A stretch of 64,000 nt of DNA from Escherichia phage SUT_E1620: the sequence record OQ939939. The stretch is one strand, 5' to 3'. Below are positions 3,662 to 18,936 of this stretch, in pieces; position 1 is the stretch's first letter; every line of letters starts with the position of its first letter. A model generated the notes under the pieces. That model made no database searches and was not told the origin of the DNA. It saw nothing but the letters and a program-made list of their open reading frames with translations. A program made the translations under genes and the position numbers.

Positions 3662-4185
3662 TTACCCAAGAAAGATTGAAGGAACTTCTAGAGTACAATC
3701 CAGATACAGGGATATTTATATGGAAGAGCCGAAAGATAGATAGAAGTGGTTTTAACAAGCAATTCGCAGGAAAAGTTGCTGGCAATCCTCAAAATAACGG
3801 TTATATCAATATTACTGTTGATTCCGAAGTTCATGGGGCACATAGATTAGCTTTTCTTTACATGGAAGGCTATATGCCTGCAAGGGTAGACCACGAAAAC
3901 ATGGTTAGGTCTGATAACAAATGGCTTAACCTACGAGAAGCTACAGTCTCTCAAAATGGTGCTAATGCGTTAAAGTATTCGAACAATAGTTCTGGATATA
4001 AGAACGTATACTGGACAAAGAAAACGTGTAAATGGCAAGTACAGGTTATGAAAGAGGGTAAATCCTACTCGGGAGGATACTTCACAAACCTCAAAGATGC
4101 TGTAGAAACTGCCAATGAGTTAAGATTTGAATTATTTGGGGAATTTGCCCTATATGAACCATTTAAAGGAGATAAACATGAGTAA
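3658..4185 (+). CDS. HNH homing/nicking endonuclease
   Basis: 175 aa; HNH_3-like segment HGAHRLAFLY...VDHEN...DNKWLNLREAT...N; GTG start overlapping the upstream stop. Confidence 0.55.
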   Translation: MITQERLKELLEYNPDTGIFIWKSRKIDRSGFNKQFAGKVAGNPQNNGYINITVDSEVHGAHRLAFLYMEGYMPARVDHENMVRSDNKWLNLREATVSQNGANALKYSNNSSGYKNVYWTKKTCKWQVQVMKEGKSYSGGYFTNLKDAVETANELRFELFGEFALYEPFKGDKHE

Positions 4186-4468
4186 ATTAGTATATCTACT
4201 GAAGGGATCTACCTGCAATCCTTGTAAACTTTTCGAGCCTGTATTCGATAAAGTAGTACAGGACTACAGTCTAGAAGTTCATAAAGAGACTGATAACACA
4301 GAACTTATGCAGAAATTTGGCGTTCGTCAGGTTCCTGTAGTAGTTCTAGCAGATCGTCTCCCTAATGGTCGTGTGGAAGCCAACCACATTCTGATTGGTC
4401 GTCAACTTCGTAAAGAAACTATGCATGACGCAATAAAAAACTTCCTGGAAGATAATCCAGAAGATTAA
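4178..4468 (+). CDS. thioredoxin-like CxxC protein
   Basis: ATG at 4178 with AGGAG SD (the track ORF starts earlier at 4127); CNPC redox-type motif near the N-terminus. Confidence 0.4.
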   Translation: MSKLVYLLKGSTCNPCKLFEPVFDKVVQDYSLEVHKETDNTELMQKFGVRQVPVVVLADRLPNGRVEANHILIGRQLRKETMHDAIKNFLEDNPED

Positions 4469-4570: not shown

Positions 4571-4951
4571 TTGAATTACGCATATCTTATAATACATAAC
4601 AATGTGGTCTGTGGTACTCGAGCTGTAGAGATGGGAATCACAGAAGAAAAGTATAACTCTTTGTCTAAATCGGAGCAAGAATACTATGTTGAACAGGCTG
4701 CTTGGGAATATGCTGAGGCTTATCCCGAAGAACGTGAAGGCCGTGTTACTATTGTTGTTACTTTGGGGCTGGTGGGCTGTGATACCGAAGTTGATACAGA
4801 TCTAGAAACACTTGAAGAATGGGAAGAATTGGATATTGCAGAACAAAATGCTATCATCCGTCAATCTTTCTGGGAAGCAGTAGACTGTCACGTTGTCTTT
4901 GAGCCAAATGATACAGAAGCTGAAAAACACACTAATTGGATGACTCGATAA
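4571..4951 (+). CDS. hypothetical acidic protein
   Basis: 126 aa; TTG start after GAGAGGAG; no recognised domain. Confidence 0.4.
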   Translation: MNYAYLIIHNNVVCGTRAVEMGITEEKYNSLSKSEQEYYVEQAAWEYAEAYPEEREGRVTIVVTLGLVGCDTEVDTDLETLEEWEELDIAEQNAIIRQSFWEAVDCHVVFEPNDTEAEKHTNWMTR

Positions 4952-6388: not shown

Positions 6389-6978
6389 TGAAAGTTAAAT
6401 TCTGGAGTGAACTCCACTTAGACCACCCAGGGATTCTTCGTTTTCGCCCCTGGTTTAAGAACATGAAAGAGCACGATGAGTATATCCTAGATACTTTGTC
6501 CAAGCACATTGGCAAGCGTACAAAACTTGTGCTGCTAGGAGATAGTGCCATGGGGCGAGAAGGGTTGGCCAAGTTGAAGTCGGTTATCCACAACGTGCCT
6601 AACCAACTAATTATGGGAAACCACGATGCTGAGCGTCAGGGTCTGCATATTAAAGATCTTATAGACGTTTATGATGATATTCAGGCTCTAGGTAAGCAAA
6701 CAGGTGGTGGCAAGAAGTTTTGGCTGTCACATTGTCCATTGCACGAAGCAGAACTTCGTGGTAGGCTAAACATTCACGGACATGTGCACACTAATTCTGT
6801 GCGTGACCCACGTTATATCAACGTCTCTTTTGAGATGAGCAAGACTCCTATTCCTCTAGAGGATATTGTGTCGGGCAAATTCACAAGCTATGATAAAGTG
6901 GTTAACTGCACTACTGGTGAAGTACTCCAAATCGATGAAGATGTGGCAGCGGTATTGAGGGGAGATATCAATGTTTGA
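6388..6978 (+). CDS. metallophosphoesterase
   Basis: 196 aa; GD..., GNHD and GHVH motifs. Confidence 0.5.
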   Translation: MKVKFWSELHLDHPGILRFRPWFKNMKEHDEYILDTLSKHIGKRTKLVLLGDSAMGREGLAKLKSVIHNVPNQLIMGNHDAERQGLHIKDLIDVYDDIQALGKQTGGGKKFWLSHCPLHEAELRGRLNIHGHVHTNSVRDPRYINVSFEMSKTPIPLEDIVSGKFTSYDKVVNCTTGEVLQIDEDVAAVLRGDINV

Positions 6979-7139: not shown

Positions 7140-7571
7140 ATGCAAAAGATTGATAAAGCACTCTTAATCGCAACAGCTGATAAGTTTGAGCAAGTTAAAG
7201 CTACTTTTAAGGCAGTCTTTCAGTCCTATGTTCAAGACAAATCGAACCCTATTTCTGAGCGTTTGATGATGTGGGAATGTTTTGCTTGCAATGCTCTGCT
7301 AATTTCCGATTATAAGGGAGAAGTATCTGAGGAATTGCATGAGATCTTTATTAATGAGGATACTCCACGCTATCAGTTAGTGAACTTCCAAGATCTAGCT
7401 GAGCAAGTTATTCCTGATGATCTTTGGGACAAGTATTACGGTGATCCTGAAGAAGATGGTATGGAACCTGAGAAGTGCATAGAACTGATCTGTAAGGATC
7501 ATCCTGAAATTGCTGAGAAATTTGAGTTAGTATTTGCTTCTGAGTTCTCAGGTTTCGTTAACGATTGGTAA
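7140..7571 (+). CDS. hypothetical acidic protein
   Basis: 143 aa; SD AAGGAA. Confidence 0.4.
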   Translation: MQKIDKALLIATADKFEQVKATFKAVFQSYVQDKSNPISERLMMWECFACNALLISDYKGEVSEELHEIFINEDTPRYQLVNFQDLAEQVIPDDLWDKYYGDPEEDGMEPEKCIELICKDHPEIAEKFELVFASEFSGFVNDW

Positions 7572-13526: not shown

Positions 13527-13571
13527 ATTTCTAGAAGACATTTTTCCAAAACACATTTCTGGAAATTGCTA

Positions 13572-14172
13572 TCGGATTTGCACATTATGTTTCTAGAAAT
13601 TTATGGTCGGATTTGCACAAGTGCCTAAGTTTTTAGGAACACATAATCTCCTGAAAATAGCAGCATTATTTCGGGCCGAAGGCCCATGATTGCCTGAGTT
13701 TTTAGAGCCACAGGAATTTTCACTTGTCAAGCTATTTTGCCTCATTTTGCTAATAAAATTTCGCTTTATCTCCCTTAATCTCAATTCTAGCCAAAACATC
13801 CCGCATTATCCCCAAAAATGCAGCAAACCGGTGCTAAAGCACCATCACCGCTGCTCCTTCCGTAGTTCCTCCCAAAAACCTCGTCAGATTCGCACTTCTC
13901 CCCAAACTCACACAATCACACACCTTCTCATCGAAGTAACAAAAATCTTGTCGGTTTTGCACACCTTAACACTTGTCGGATTTGCACATACTCTAGTAAA
14001 TCCAGCTGGATTGCATCGCAGTTGCGGATTGCTGGAGTTTTTAGGAAAATTCATTGTCGGATTTGCACACTACCAAAAATTTTGGGGTCGGATTTGCACA
14101 CTACCAAAAATTGTCGGATTCGCACATACACGCCCGCACGTAACACCCGTGGAGCAATGTCGGATTTGCACA
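13572..14172. repeat. iteron array: 8 or more copies of 13-bp TCGGATTTGCACA
   Basis: copies at 13572, 13607, 13951 (TCGGTTTTGCACA), 13976, 14057, 14088, 14114 (TCGGATTCGCACA), 14160; two copies share extended context GTCGGATTTGCACACTACCAAAAATT. Confidence 0.8.
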
Positions 14173-14176
14173 AAAG

Positions 14177-14196
14177 CGCAGGGCAATTGCCCTGCG
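14177..14196. repeat. perfect 20-bp palindrome CGCAGGGCAATTGCCCTGCG
   Basis: self-complementary by direct reading; sits between the iteron array and the tandem repeats. Confidence 0.7.
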
Positions 14197-14201
14197 ACTT
14201 T

Positions 14202-14369
14202 GAATGATAATGTTTCTCATTTAAGAAGTGGAATGCGAATGATAATGTTTCTCATTTAAGAAGTGAAATGAGAACTATTCAAAAAGTGAAATGATTCTCA
14301 TTTAAGAAAGGAAATGATTATCAGTTAGACAGTGGAATGCGAATGATAATGATTCTCATTTAAGAATGG
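14202..14369. repeat. four tandem about 35-bp direct repeats (GAATGATAATGTTTCTCATTTAAGAAGTG family)
   Basis: units at about 14202, 14237, 14288 and 14341; related copies near 14700, 18110 and 23770. Confidence 0.7.
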
Positions 14370-14393
14370 AAGTGAGAAACACTGTTATTTAAG

Positions 14394-14502
14394 TTATCCA
14401 CAGACTTATTAACAGCACGATTTGATTTGACAGAATCCTAGCCATTTTGAGGCGTTATTAACAGACTTATCCACAGCTTATCCTACTGTATAAATATACA
14501 GT
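14394..14502. repeat. left arm of about 110-bp imperfect inverted repeat with two DnaA boxes
   Basis: TTATCCACA at 14394 and 14467; palindrome CTGTATAAATATACAG; reverse complement aligns to 17989-18096 at roughly 80 percent identity. Confidence 0.7.
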
Positions 14503-14759
14503 ATTCCTATGTAGTGAATAATTCTAATATAGGCCTAAAACGTCCTGAATCGCATTCTAACGCGTTTAATTTTGATGGAGATACTAAAACAAGGGCAAAA
14601 TTGGAGGAGGCTTAAAAATTAGTTAGCTTGCTAACGATCACACAAGGCGACACGTAACACCTTAATCATTAGCAGGCTAACCATCGCGGGCGCGGTTAAA
14701 TGAGAATCACTCTCATTTGAGAATTGGGGGCACTCCCTGGTAGTTGCGCCCCGTTATTA

Positions 14760-14954
14760 TTAGTCTGGTAGTCGATGCGTGATCTTTTCCTCCTCCCCGT
14801 AGGAATCCACCAAATGCTGATAATAACCATCGGCATCATAAATAACGCTATCATATTCGCCACGCTCGACCGCTTGCCGATTCTCCGGCGTATCGGGCAC
14901 GTAAAAAACATCAACCATTGTACTGATTTTGGTTACAACAATTTTATTGCTCAT
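14760..14954 (-). CDS. hypothetical acidic protein (cassette gene)
   Basis: ATG at 14954 with AGGGG SD (the track ORF extends to a TTG at 14984); last gene of the minus-strand operon. Confidence 0.35.
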   Translation of the reverse strand: MSNKIVVTKISTMVDVFYVPDTPENRQAVERGEYDSVIYDADGYYQHLVDSYGEEEKITHRLPD

Positions 14955-15054
14955 AATAACCCCTAGTAAATATATTTTTGCCAATAGTGGCGAACGTTAT
15001 CGCCACCAGCGGAATCATTTGCAGCCTCAACATTACCCGCGAAAATATATAATC

Positions 15055-15399
15055 TCATTGCGCCACCTTTCGAAACGCTGTTTCAATACTATCCGCAGTG
15101 GATTGAATATACGCGCCTTTCATTATCAGGCGCTCGGTGCATATCTTGCGAAAAATATTAATAAAATCATCTTCATTTTCTGCAATTAATGCTTCACCCA
15201 TAACCTGAACGTCACAAGATGCAAAGGTCAAAAATTGAAACGCTAGTTCACGGGCAACGACCGCATTGATTTTATAATGCGCCTTGCCCTCATAAATATT
15301 AATAACGCCCTTATAAGCTGGTGAAAGCTGATTCAAATAGTTTGCTAGTAATGCCGGACGGCAATTAGCAACAAAACGATTGCCTTCATAAATAACCAT
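15055..15399 (-). CDS. hypothetical protein (cassette gene)
   Basis: ATG at 15399 lies 1 nt after the upstream stop (the track ORF extends to a TTG at 15438). Confidence 0.4.
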   Translation of the reverse strand: MVIYEGNRFVANCRPALLANYLNQLSPAYKGVINIYEGKAHYKINAVVARELAFQFLTFASCDVQVMGEALIAENEDDFINIFRKICTERLIMKGAYIQSTADSIETAFRKVAQ

Positions 15400-15400
15400 T

Positions 15401-15613
15401 TTATAACACCCCACGAAACGCAGCGTAAAAGGTGGCAAAGTGTTTAACCGTTTCAGCGATCACGTTGCCGCGCTTGTCGAATTTTTTCTCAGTAACACGG
15501 AAGGCGTTTTTATTTCGCGCTACATATTCAATTTTACAATCTTCCCGCTCGAACGTGTTAACGTCCACCAGCTTAAAGCCTTTTGAACGTGCAAGGGAAA
15601 CGTTACGAATCAT
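15401..15613 (-). CDS. hypothetical basic protein (cassette gene)
   Basis: 70 aa; SD AAGGAG; tightly packed. Confidence 0.4.
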   Translation of the reverse strand: MIRNVSLARSKGFKLVDVNTFEREDCKIEYVARNKNAFRVTEKKFDKRGNVIAETVKHFATFYAAFRGVL

Positions 15614-15615
15614 TT

Positions 15616-15765
15616 TTATTCTCCTTTACTAGTCATGCAGCCCAGCAGATAAGAAAATACAGCGATACCCGCACCAATAATAACCGCGTGAACGTCGAAA
15701 GCTATTGCAAACAAAGATAAAATAGCGCCCAAGATACCCGCCAGAATAGCTCGAAAAATAACCAT
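15616..15765 (-). CDS. small hydrophobic membrane peptide (about 49 aa)
   Basis: hand-translated MVIFRAILAGILGAILSLFAIAFDVHAVIIGAGIAVFSYLLGCMTSKGE; SD AGGAGG; not in the ORF track because it is under 60 aa. Confidence 0.35.
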   Translation of the reverse strand: MVIFRAILAGILGAILSLFAIAFDVHAVIIGAGIAVFSYLLGCMTSKGE

Positions 15766-15814
15766 TTGTGATAGCCTCCTAGTTATCGGGGGATATAATA
15801 TCCCCCGTTACTAA

Positions 15815-16045
15815 TTACATTAAAACAATTTTTGCAGCTTGTTTTTTGGTGCAATGTTCCGCCTTCAGGGTATCCAGCAAAAAGCCAGCCGTTTGCTGAT
15901 CGATTTTATCGGCGTTATATAGTTCCTGAATGGTATTATAGGTTTTAGCAATACCGAACTCCTGCACCATTTCATAGATGACAGCACGATTAGACACCCA
16001 GCCTTGAGCGGTGAACAGATGACTAGCAGAAGAATAAGCAACCAT
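15815..16045 (-). CDS. hypothetical protein (cassette gene)
   Basis: ATG at 16045 preceded by GGAGG (the track ORF extends to a TTG at 16078). Confidence 0.4.
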   Translation of the reverse strand: MVAYSSASHLFTAQGWVSNRAVIYEMVQEFGIAKTYNTIQELYNADKIDQQTAGFLLDTLKAEHCTKKQAAKIVLM

Positions 16046-16108
16046 TTTAAGCCTCCAAATTTTTGGGAAAATTTTCAACCGTCCTTAAACGGTGTAAAGG
16101 CATTATAA

Positions 16109-16138
16109 CAAAAAAGGCCACCAATTATGGCGACCTTT
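16109..16138 (-). terminator. possible rho-independent terminator (minus strand)
   Basis: imperfect hairpin AAAGGTCGCC...GGTGGCCTTT followed by U-run in the minus-strand transcript, between the 164-aa gene and the downstream genes. Confidence 0.3.
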
Positions 16139-16151
16139 ACAAAACTTTACA

Positions 16152-16646
16152 TTAAACTACTTGTAATGTTTCAATATTGAAACATCGTTTCAATTCGTCA
16201 TGCAAAACAGCGTATTCATCCCATCGGGTACTATCAGGGATATAAACAAGCTGTTTTAGTCGGTTTGCGTATATTACCGCTTTGTTACCAACTATCTCGA
16301 CGCCGCCATATTTAATAATTAATTTCATGACGGAATTAATAGGATCGCCGCCGTTTACATATGTGCCGGATTTACTTAATTGATAATGATAAAGGCTTGC
16401 ATATACATTATCATTCTCATACCATTCGCCAGTATCCTCGTCTTCATAGCCATCGCTACCAAAACGAGAAGCATTATCAATAGCCATTTCATGAGCGAAA
16501 GCGTCCAGATCCGTACCAGCAGGAACAAAGTATTCCTCGGTATTCCCCTCGCCGCAATAGCCAGTATGGCAATCGACTAAAATGATCATATCATGTTTAG
16601 CCGTGCTCACTTCCCCTAGCGAGAAGCCGTATTTTTCCTCAGCCAT
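16152..16646 (-). CDS. highly acidic protein of unknown function
   Basis: 164 aa; about 28 Asp/Glu against 12 Lys/Arg, concentrated in the N-terminal 80 residues; SD AGGAGG. Confidence 0.5.
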   Translation of the reverse strand: MAEEKYGFSLGEVSTAKHDMIILVDCHTGYCGEGNTEEYFVPAGTDLDAFAHEMAIDNASRFGSDGYEDEDTGEWYENDNVYASLYHYQLSKSGTYVNGGDPINSVMKLIIKYGGVEIVGNKAVIYANRLKQLVYIPDSTRWDEYAVLHDELKRCFNIETLQVV

Positions 16647-16711
16647 TAGTTAGCCTCCTATTAATTAACAAGGGAATAGTAAAGCGGGGTAACAATCCCC
16701 GCTTAATATTA

Positions 16712-17722
16712 TTACTCGCTTTCGGTGTTAGTGGTAAAAGTAGAAATATCGATACCTTTTACCATTTCATCAATCATTTCAGCGATGTTAAAACTTTGCA
16801 CCATTTCCAGCATTGCCGCTTCCATAGCCGCCCCTGCTACCGCTTTCGCCTTTTGGTTATTTGGGGCGTACTGGTCAACCGCTACACTCAGCAGGTTAGC
16901 AATCACTACTCGACCAATAGGCGTATCGATATAACCTTTGATCATGAATGGTGCTTTTTTAGCCGCTACTTTCGTAATTTGAGTTAATGCAATTTTACCC
17001 GCTTCCAGTTTTGCAGCATTTACAACAGCGGATTTATTGGCGGCAACGATATTGGCGATCTTGGTCATGGTATTTTTTCCTTTGTTTTCAGTGATTTGAG
17101 TATTAACGCTTTGAGTGTTAGAATTTACAGCATGTTTTTCCGTGCTGTCAATGATCTGATTCTCATCTTTCCAGAAAATAAAACCCGCTTCATGTACTAG
17201 TTCATTATATATATACGGGTATAATTTCGATGGTAATAAAAAATTACCGTCGCCATCAAAAGCCATTACCGCCGTATATTGAGATCCATCACTATCAGGC
17301 CTATGCCATCCAGCAGATAAATACTTCCAGATAACATCTAAAAACCCCTCAAGGCTAGAAAGTCCGTTTATTAAATCAAGCCCAATAAGCTCAAAATTAT
17401 TTATATTAAATGATTGACGGCCTGAATTGCTATGATACGCAACAATATTATTACCCTGCGCAATAATAAAATCGGTATCCGGCCCCGCTCCCTTGCCTGT
17501 AAAGATATGGCAATCACGATTATATAAGATAATCGTTGCCCCCTGCTTATATAAGGGTAGAAAACTATCCATATCATAGGCATCATAATCATCAAAAAAG
17601 TTTTGGTGAATAGTTTCAGCCTTGTTAATAAAATGTTTAATGCTGGTTGTTCTGCTACCATCCAGCAGGTTACGCAGCGCACCTTTTAAGACGGTTGCGT
17701 TATCTGGTTTATATAGCCTCAT
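16712..17722 (-). CDS. two-domain protein of unknown function
   Basis: 336 aa; SD GGGAGG; N-terminal about 190-aa domain, polar linker, Ala/Val-rich amphipathic C-terminal domain. Confidence 0.5.
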   Translation of the reverse strand: MRLYKPDNATVLKGALRNLLDGSRTTSIKHFINKAETIHQNFFDDYDAYDMDSFLPLYKQGATIILYNRDCHIFTGKGAGPDTDFIIAQGNNIVAYHSNSGRQSFNINNFELIGLDLINGLSSLEGFLDVIWKYLSAGWHRPDSDGSQYTAVMAFDGDGNFLLPSKLYPYIYNELVHEAGFIFWKDENQIIDSTEKHAVNSNTQSVNTQITENKGKNTMTKIANIVAANKSAVVNAAKLEAGKIALTQITKVAAKKAPFMIKGYIDTPIGRVVIANLLSVAVDQYAPNNQKAKAVAGAAMEAAMLEMVQSFNIAEMIDEMVKGIDISTFTTNTESE

Positions 17723-17988
17723 TTGTTGGCCTCCCTCGTTAATCGGTGAGTGAATGATAAAGGCAATTTTCTAGCATAGGCAAATATTATTTTACCTTTT
17801 TATTTTCCTTGCCTAGCGCCTAGTTTTATGCTAACCGCGCAGCGGTACAGTAAAGAGCAAAACACGGTGAAGCCACCAGGGCGACGGGTGAAGGCTTTAC
17901 TTTAATATTACCCCACCGCATTTAGCTCGTTAGAAAGCGTTTTAGGCCGCTTAAAATTGATTGCAGTTGTTAACACTACCCATTTACC

Positions 17989-18096
17989 CTGTATATTTAT
18001 ACAGTAGGATAACATGTGGATAAGTCTGTGGATAAGTCCTTATATCGCCGCCTATCGTGTCAAATCATTTTGTGCTGTTAATAACATTGTGGATAA
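17989..18096. repeat. right arm of inverted repeat with three DnaA boxes
   Basis: TGTGGATAA at 18015, 18027 and 18088; palindrome CTGTATATTTATACAG; inverted copy of 14394-14502. Confidence 0.7.
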
Positions 18097-18936
18097 CTTA
18101 AATGATAGTGGTTCTCACTTAGGACGATAGTTTCTTATAGTTATTATTTCTATCGGTTACGATTTCTTATAATTATTATTTCTCATTAATTTATAAGTAT
18201 ATTATATATCATGAAATAGTTAGTTGGCTAATGAGATTTTCCGTGATTAATAGTCTGCTAATAGTTCCGGCTGTTACAATCCACCAGCATGATTATCATC
18301 CTAGCAACTATTAGTCTGCTATCTTTCCGATGCATACTAACAAATAAAAGTCAATTAATTTATTTCATAAAATAAGTAGTTATCCACTGGAAAATAAAAG
18401 TCAAGTGGATAACTAGGAAAATTTCATTTTTGCTTTTGGGGATAAGTTATCAACAAGGCTAGAATGCGCCTAAAACGCCCTAGAACGCGATGAAAGTTTT
18501 AGCCATGCCATTGCATTGCCTACCCTCGTTTATCGCTACCACGAGCTTTTTAGTTTTTGTCAAGTAGGGCAAGGCAAATATAAATGAAAAAATTACTTGC
18601 CAACCTGCTGGGTTTTATGGTATTCGCGCGCCCGTTTCCTTTAATTTTAGTGCGCCGCGCCCAGGTCGCCGCACGGTGTCCGGTGGCATTTTGTCTTTAC
18701 GTTTCTTTACAAAAATAAGGTTGCGCCATTTTTACTATTTGCTATTATTTATCTCGTAGGGAGGCAATGACGAACTACACGGCGGGAAGTTTACCGCCAC
18801 GCTCTTTAAAAATTGGGTATATCTTAAAGCCTATCGGCGGTAAACTTATTCATTATAAGGAATCGACGATATGAAACAGACGCTTTTGATCACTGGCAAG
18901 CCTAGCAAGGCACTAGATAGCAAAACAAAAAACTTG

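Follow-up and report, generated by a model that had tools for sequence, protein, structure and literature searches.

The window analyzed here, a stretch of 64,000 nucleotides from Escherichia phage SUT_E1620 (sequence record OQ939939), carries on its minus strand a cassette of small genes (positions 14760-17722) that we identify, with a probability of about 85%, as the right-hand pre-early (first-step-transfer) operon of a Tequintavirus, i.e., a T5-like phage, orthologous to T5.011-T5.017. A sequence-only reading had correctly taken the window for T5-like and the cassette for pre-early and had suggested that its acidic protein of 164 amino acids (aa) might be the DNA mimic by which such phages escape restriction. 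This suggestion has to be given up: judged by its distribution across phage genomes, the 164-aa protein does not account for the restriction insensitivity that T5-like phages show in general. The cassette in itself contains nothing new, being a 91% to 97% identical copy of a published and partly characterized operon, and the residual novelty is that the 164-aa protein represents an uncharacterized accessory family beyond the reach of T5-centered studies.

The assignment of the locus is based on similarity, gene order, and flanking elements. Tequintavirus genomes are the best matches to segment 14000-18500 (91% to 97% nucleotide identity; 458 phage records matched), and in the very best of them, Salmonella phage SIA3lw, the corresponding region is part of the annotated terminal repeat. 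The cassette agrees in position, orientation, and gene order with T5.011-T5.017 of phage T5 (NC_005859 6495-9157), and the orthologues of T5.011 to T5.015 and of T5.017 show tblastn identities of 67% to 100% (Table 1). As in T5 and BF23, synteny, terminal-repeat annotation, and downstream repeats place the cassette between a divergent pre-early promoter region and injection-stop repeats. The non-coding region just downstream (13570-14720) comprises seven copies of TCGGATTTGCACA, tandem repeats of ca. 35 nt (three copies of a unit with a 35-nt period), several inverted repeats, and two DnaA-box-like sites TTATCCACA at 14393-14477, and it is the counterpart of the injection-stop region located after T5.017 in T5. 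Unlike T5, the window has the 164-aa gene between the orthologues of 011 and 012, lacks T5.016 between a 31-aa open reading frame (ORF) and the T5.017 orthologue, and is devoid of the HNH homing-endonuclease gene hegG that T5 carries in the divergent pre-early promoter region (window positions 17723-18870); a T5.013 that is 10 residues shorter is a further listed difference.

The genes had previously been counted as seven, all of which are real and have the boundaries assigned to them, but the cassette holds eight minus-strand ORFs of 336, 164, 76, 49, 70, 114, 31, and 64 aa when counted from ATG start codons that are preceded by a ribosome-binding site (three of the longest-ORF starts in the program-made list are upstream TTGs). 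The shortfall apparently arose because the 31-aa ORF, which is annotated in phages VEc33 and BF23, had been overlooked. We regard all eight as real genes because each is under purifying selection, with pairwise ratios of nonsynonymous to synonymous divergence (dN/dS) of 0 to 0.15 against the orthologues in T5, VEc33, BF23, and Bas31, and because each protein searched is encoded in 336 to 437 phage records. The earlier impression that none of the products can be recognized is contradicted by their correspondence to the T5.011-T5.017 operon, which includes the nickase T5.015 and, in 011 and 013, proteins of published toxicity. Most of them are indeed without an assigned biochemical function, and scans of all eight proteins against Pfam, NCBIfam, and PHROG returned only domains of unknown function (DUFs) and families of unknown function.

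Phages T5, BF23, Bas31, and Bas33 are insensitive to type I, II, and III restriction unless recognition sites lie in the first-step-transfer DNA, while Bas26 to Bas29 are sensitive (Skutel et al., PMC10644984). The presence of the 164-aa gene tracks this phenotype in neither direction. It is carried by BF23 (BF23_00011), Bas31 (bas31_0175), VEc33, and SIA3lw, and the sensitive Epseptimavirus Bas27 encodes a 55% identical homologue. An alignment of the window with T5 reveals a clean insertion/deletion of ca. 565 bp that covers the gene; in T5, the stop codon of 011 runs straight to the common terminator, with the hairpin, the ribosome-binding site, and the 164-aa gene all missing, and tblastn against T5 positions 1-111000 found no homologue (best chance match E=0.016). 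The gene-less junction is present in three independent T5 sequences as well as in many wild isolates, and the same 118-bp gap separates the 012 and 011 orthologues of Bas33. Since the insensitive T5 and Bas33 are without the gene, it cannot explain the escape of T5 from restriction, and the acidic protein drops off the list of candidates for this long-standing puzzle. By the same comparative logic, Davison favored universally conserved genes such as T5.007, which is part of the other operon. With a homologue in 344 phage records compared to about 437 that have T5.015, the 164-aa gene is accessory and is carried by roughly 60% of T5-like phages. The slot between 011 and 012 (window positions 16047-16711) is variable more generally: it is empty in T5 and Bas33, holds one gene in the window, and holds two in Bas31, where the additional gene encodes an unrelated 105-aa protein (bas31_0176, phrog_16959). 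Klebsiella phage IME260 has in this slot a different acidic 164-aa protein (phrog_22359) together with an unannotated homologue of the window protein (4001-4369 of the IME260 locus).

It is therefore very improbable that the 164-aa protein is an anti-restriction DNA mimic in the manner of Ocr (T7 gp0.3) or ArdA and the pre-early function behind the restriction insensitivity of T5-like phages, although it resembles these proteins in being small, acidic, and encoded on the DNA that enters the cell first, which is where an anti-restriction factor would be expected. The protein had been described as strongly acidic, and acidic it is (pI 4.46; net charge -16, with 28 aspartate and glutamate versus 12 lysine and arginine residues), but only moderately so, since its -0.098 charges per residue rank fourth among the 77 ORFs of the window. 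Ocr carries roughly -0.25 charges per residue, and the 164-aa protein stays well below this density. All its relatives are acidic as well (net charge -10 to -33, pI 4.05 to 4.8), even at 21% to 30% identity, which argues that acidity is a selected trait of the family and would suit a DNA mimic. None of the six nearly invariant positions across 31 diverse relatives (T28, G29, G32, A55, A59, and G99) is acidic. The most acidic stretch, residues 62 to 81, forms a beta-hairpin in the structural model and corresponds to a CxxC...CxxC zinc ribbon in 12 of the 31 representatives. No match of the protein or of 30 relatives to an anti-restriction family was found in Pfam, NCBIfam, or PDB sequences. Its AlphaFold model, built on 18 homologues and confident (predicted local distance difference test score, pLDDT, 88.7; predicted template modeling score, pTM, 0.83), shows a mixed alpha/beta fold of two subdomains in which we found no structural resemblance to any solved DNA mimic; unlike Ocr and ArdA, it would feature a (degenerate) zinc-ribbon hairpin. 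Given that DNA mimics share no common fold, this lack of similarity is not decisive.

Profile and structure searches, which had been proposed at the outset, yielded orthologues and DUF7566 for the cassette but no informative sequence or fold relative for the 164-aa protein. It matches phrog_6741 over its full length (E=4.4e-86), and all 31 diverse relatives belong to this same PHROG, which has no annotated function. The family profile retrieved nothing below E=0.59 from the PDB sequences, and Foldseek against BFVD returned uncharacterized proteins only, with all named significant matches being proteins of T5-like phages. An exhaustive HMMER profile search of 1.84 billion representative proteins recovered just 32 relatives (clusters at 50% identity), all short and stand-alone, and no informative fusion among these representatives. 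Wherever relatives could be placed, the genome is one of Demerecviridae or comparable in size (about 105-125 kb), with the gene falling within the terminal repeat if one is annotated; the hosts are Escherichia, Salmonella, Klebsiella, Serratia, Pectobacterium, Pantoea, Erwinia, and Vibrio; the context of distant relatives was taken from tblastn against GenBank phages, and single-protein scans of IMG/VR for the same purpose gave no match. The family shares the conserved blocks TGxCGE, ENAxSxG, and YxYQxSxSGxYVNGGxP, and a Pfam scan of the relatives gave weak zinc-ribbon matches only, in line with the CxxC...CxxC hairpin. The window protein belongs to a subgroup whose zinc-binding cysteines have been lost, and its hairpin looks like a cysteine-less acidic remnant of such a zinc ribbon. 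At a dN/dS of 0.06 to 0.15 against its orthologues, the gene is best described as old and kept by selection yet optional, a pre-early gene that studies of T5, whose 17 pre-early genes have been cloned or deleted, could not test. The published accessory-gene screens that we looked at have T5-like genes outside their coverage, and BF23 and Bas31 are tractable phages that carry the gene.

We propose that host RNA polymerase with sigma-70 would transcribe the operon during the initial minutes of infection, while the remainder of the genome has yet to enter, and that its products would serve as non-essential host-takeover factors. The T5.015 orthologue would bind host Ung and nick the abasic sites that Ung creates in dUMP-containing host DNA, and the T5.013 orthologue, a membrane peptide with two segments, would compromise envelope integrity when expressed alone, both as shown in T5. 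T5.011 would perturb nucleoid organization, a phenotype also shown in T5, possibly through its invariant helical C-terminal domain because this is the constrained part of the protein. The 164-aa gene is an optional insertion of the cassette, situated between 011 and 012; it has a ribosome-binding site to itself and is preceded by a hairpin. Its product may be an accessory inhibitor of a host protein, either a defense or a DNA-metabolism factor, to which it would bind through its conserved acidic surface and through the beta-hairpin loop, which in many relatives takes the form of a zinc ribbon. That it acts as an anti-defense protein or host-factor inhibitor in general is a tentative suggestion, made because the protein is small and acidic and has a hairpin of the zinc-ribbon type, and because its gene is optional, kept by purifying selection, and located on the first DNA to enter. 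Somewhat more speculative still is the fuller version that it forms a Demerecviridae-specific pre-early accessory family whose orphan fold combines an acidic alpha/beta core with a zinc-ribbon or degenerate acidic hairpin and that might neutralize a host defense or DNA-metabolism protein never met by T5 in its laboratory hosts. If so, all T5-based screens would have missed this function because T5 lost the gene.

Several points count against this picture. The pre-early timing of the genes in this phage is read from synteny with T5, BF23, and Bas33, and the proposed inhibition of a host protein from timing, accessory distribution, and charge, while homology assigns no activity to the 164-aa protein. 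The cassette may also consist of two separate transcription units instead of a single operon, given that a terminator lies between the 164-aa gene and 012. Finally, T5.011 has no confident structural model (pLDDT 61.5), and its fold matches are only generic helical ones. Regarding timing, the supplementary expression table for Bas33 (PMC13250531) lists read counts for bas33_0172-0177, at the positions of T5.012 to T5.015 and 011, and the same work detected transcripts as well as, by proteomics, ten pre-early proteins in Bas33 infections arrested after first-step transfer.

The location of the 164-aa gene invites the different idea that its product is a partner or modulator of the toxic T5.011, e.g., by tempering or redirecting it, with both being expressed from a common transcription unit that ends at the terminator. 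In Tequintavirus and BF23, the gene indeed lies directly 3' of 011 and before the terminator, Klebsiella T5-like phages hold a homologue near their 011 orthologue, and wild-type 011 could not be cloned owing to its strong toxicity (Annor et al., bioRxiv 10.64898/2026.04.02.716235). Yet T5 and Bas33 are fully viable with an 011 but no 164-aa gene, Bas31 has its unrelated 105-aa gene between the two, and the slot has the character of a variable accessory site, not of a fixed gene pair, so that we consider such a partnership quite improbable. It is likewise rather unlikely that the anti-restriction determinant of Tequintavirus resides elsewhere in the cassette, for instance in T5.011, T5.012, or T5.014. 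A determinant of this kind is expected to be pre-early, and the conservation of the operon would fit: at least 60% of Demerecviridae genomes have 011, and >75% of Tequintavirus genomes have the other T5 pre-early genes, with 003, 009, 016, and hegG as the exceptions (Annor et al.), T5.014 is present in 436 phage records, and purifying selection is extreme both for T5.014 and for the C-terminal domain of 011. On the other hand, restriction-sensitive Epseptimaviruses carry homologues of 011, 014, and 015 at about 80% to 94% identity, Davison's comparative argument favors T5.007 in the other operon, and T5 deleted for hegG-017 is viable (Annor et al.). We thus favor the operon as a set of host-takeover genes that in this phage includes an optional acidic protein.

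Table 1. Genes and expression signals of the cassette, listed in the direction of transcription (positions in the window; protein sizes from ATG start codons).
Feature	Position	Strand	Remarks
Candidate sigma-70 pre-early promoter(s)	17754..17815	-	Upstream of the 336-aa gene; consensus matches only; position matches the promoter annotated at T5 6411-6489
T5.011 orthologue, 336 aa	16712..17722	-	96% identical to T5.011; Pfam DUF7566, "37 kD pre-early protein"
GC-rich hairpin (AAGCGGGGattgttaCCCCGCTT)	16682..16704	-	Between the 336-aa and 164-aa genes; part of the ca. 565-bp segment missing in T5
Accessory acidic pre-early protein, 164 aa	16152..16646	-	phrog_6741; in BF23, Bas31, VEc33, SIA3lw; not in T5, Bas33
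Intrinsic terminator, strong	16113..16138	-	11-bp stem followed by T-run; 3' of the 164-aa gene; same element annotated after T5.011 in T5
T5.012 orthologue, 76 aa	15815..16045	-	83% identical to T5.012; phrog_5145; longest ORF 87 aa from upstream TTG
T5.013 orthologue, 49 aa	15616..15765	-	67% identical to T5.013; two predicted transmembrane segments; grand average of hydropathy (GRAVY) 1.68
T5.014 orthologue, 70 aa	15401..15613	-	100% identical to T5.014; basic, pI 10; stop 1 nt before T5.015 start
T5.015 orthologue, 114 aa	15055..15399	-	93% identical to T5.015; predicted Ung-dependent nickase of abasic sites
Conserved 31-aa ORF	14963..15058	-	Overlaps T5.015 stop by 4 nt; annotated in VEc33, BF23
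T5.017 orthologue, 64 aa	14760..14954	-	92% identical to T5.017; acidic, pI 4.5; phrog_6973; last gene before the injection-stop repeats

The 336-aa protein had been described as composed of two domains with an alanine- and valine-rich C-terminal part, which our analysis bears out. The last 119 residues (218 to 336; window positions 16712-17068) contain 28% alanine plus valine compared to 9% in the N-terminal part, a linker at residues 186 to 235 is a low-confidence stretch of the overall poorly resolved AlphaFold model, and the two domains differ in constraint (dN/dS 0.02 to 0.05 for the C-terminal versus 0.12 to 0.25 for the N-terminal domain). Pfam PF24450 (DUF7566) matches the protein over its full length (E=6.8e-115; 384.6 bits versus a cut-off of 27), and a PDB sequence search with the C-terminal domain found no match. 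This domain is nearly invariant in Tequintaviruses and retains ca. 75% identity even in Klebsiella Sugarlandviruses, where the N-terminal domains share only ca. 20%, and its 119 residues are among the most constrained sequences of the cassette. We considered whether a DNA-level element might underlie this conservation, but synonymous divergence there is normal (dS 0.28 to 0.40), so what is constrained is the protein rather than the DNA. A second phage family, phrog_16673, has the same C-terminal domain attached to a different N-terminal domain, which suggests that the domain could be a portable module with a conserved target. In T5, 011 is toxic to E. coli in two screens (Mahata et al. 2021, PMC8201957; Annor et al.), and its expression results in uneven nucleoids, though the protein is said there to resist functional predictions (Annor et al.).

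Among the remaining genes, the 114-aa protein has the best understood relative. T5 gp015 is an Ung-binding protein that cuts one strand at abasic sites made by Ung, i.e., a nickase, and the joint substitution K85A/K94A/K111A renders it inactive and abolishes its toxicity (Mahata et al.). All three lysines are present at exactly these positions of the window protein, which identifies it as an orthologue of this Ung-dependent nickase, with its presumed biochemistry being taken over from T5 gp015. In T5, expression of 015 gives elongated cells with guillotined nucleoids (Annor et al.). RefSeq records and phrog_4227 assign the description "endonuclease nicking abasic sites generated by host Ung" to the 70-aa T5.014 family. 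The K85A/K94A/K111A mutant requires a protein of at least 111 residues, i.e., the 114-aa T5.015 and not the 70-aa T5.014, so that the nickase label appears to sit on the wrong neighboring gene in many records, and this annotation is widespread in the databases. T5.014 itself is 100% identical among the window, T5, VEc33, BF23, and SIA3lw despite a proportion of synonymous differences (pS) of 0.34 to 0.47. This invariance, the nearly equal numbers of phage records for T5.014 and T5.015 (436 and 437), and the spacing of 1 nt suggest that 014 and 015 may form a tightly linked module; PDB sequence searches with either protein found no match. The 49-aa peptide is hydrophobic, as had been noted before, and its T5 counterpart 013 is toxic in E. 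coli with lysis-like ghosts (Annor et al.). Of 13 T5 pre-early genes cloned by Mahata et al., including 011-017, 008, 011, and 015 were toxic, compared to 011, 013, and 015 in the work of Annor et al., and T5.012 showed no toxicity in either screen.

Strong Shine-Dalgarno sequences had been ascribed to all genes of the cassette, and this holds for the 336-, 164-, 76-, 49-, and 70-aa ORFs with motifs of the GGAGG or AGGAG type as well as, with GGTGG, for the 31-aa ORF, but the sequences at this position are weaker upstream of the 114-aa and 64-aa ORFs. The genes are tightly spaced or coupled, as had been seen: intergenic distances in gene order are 65, 106, 49, 2, 1, -4, and 8 nt, the last five genes are coupled, and a terminator sets the 164-aa gene apart from the rest. 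In BF23, the annotation predicts a promoter at the junction between the 164-aa gene and 012.

Two other ORFs of the window are more acidic than the 164-aa protein, and both are uncharacterized and lie in a block syntenic with T5 early genes. The first (4631-4951, plus strand) encodes a 106-aa protein of DUF7167/phrog_6798 with a pI of 4.07 and -0.189 charges per residue and has no T5 homologue by tblastn. The second (7140-7571, plus strand) encodes a 143-aa protein of DUF7020 with a pI of 4.26 that is 76% identical to T5.033 (T5 16317-16748).

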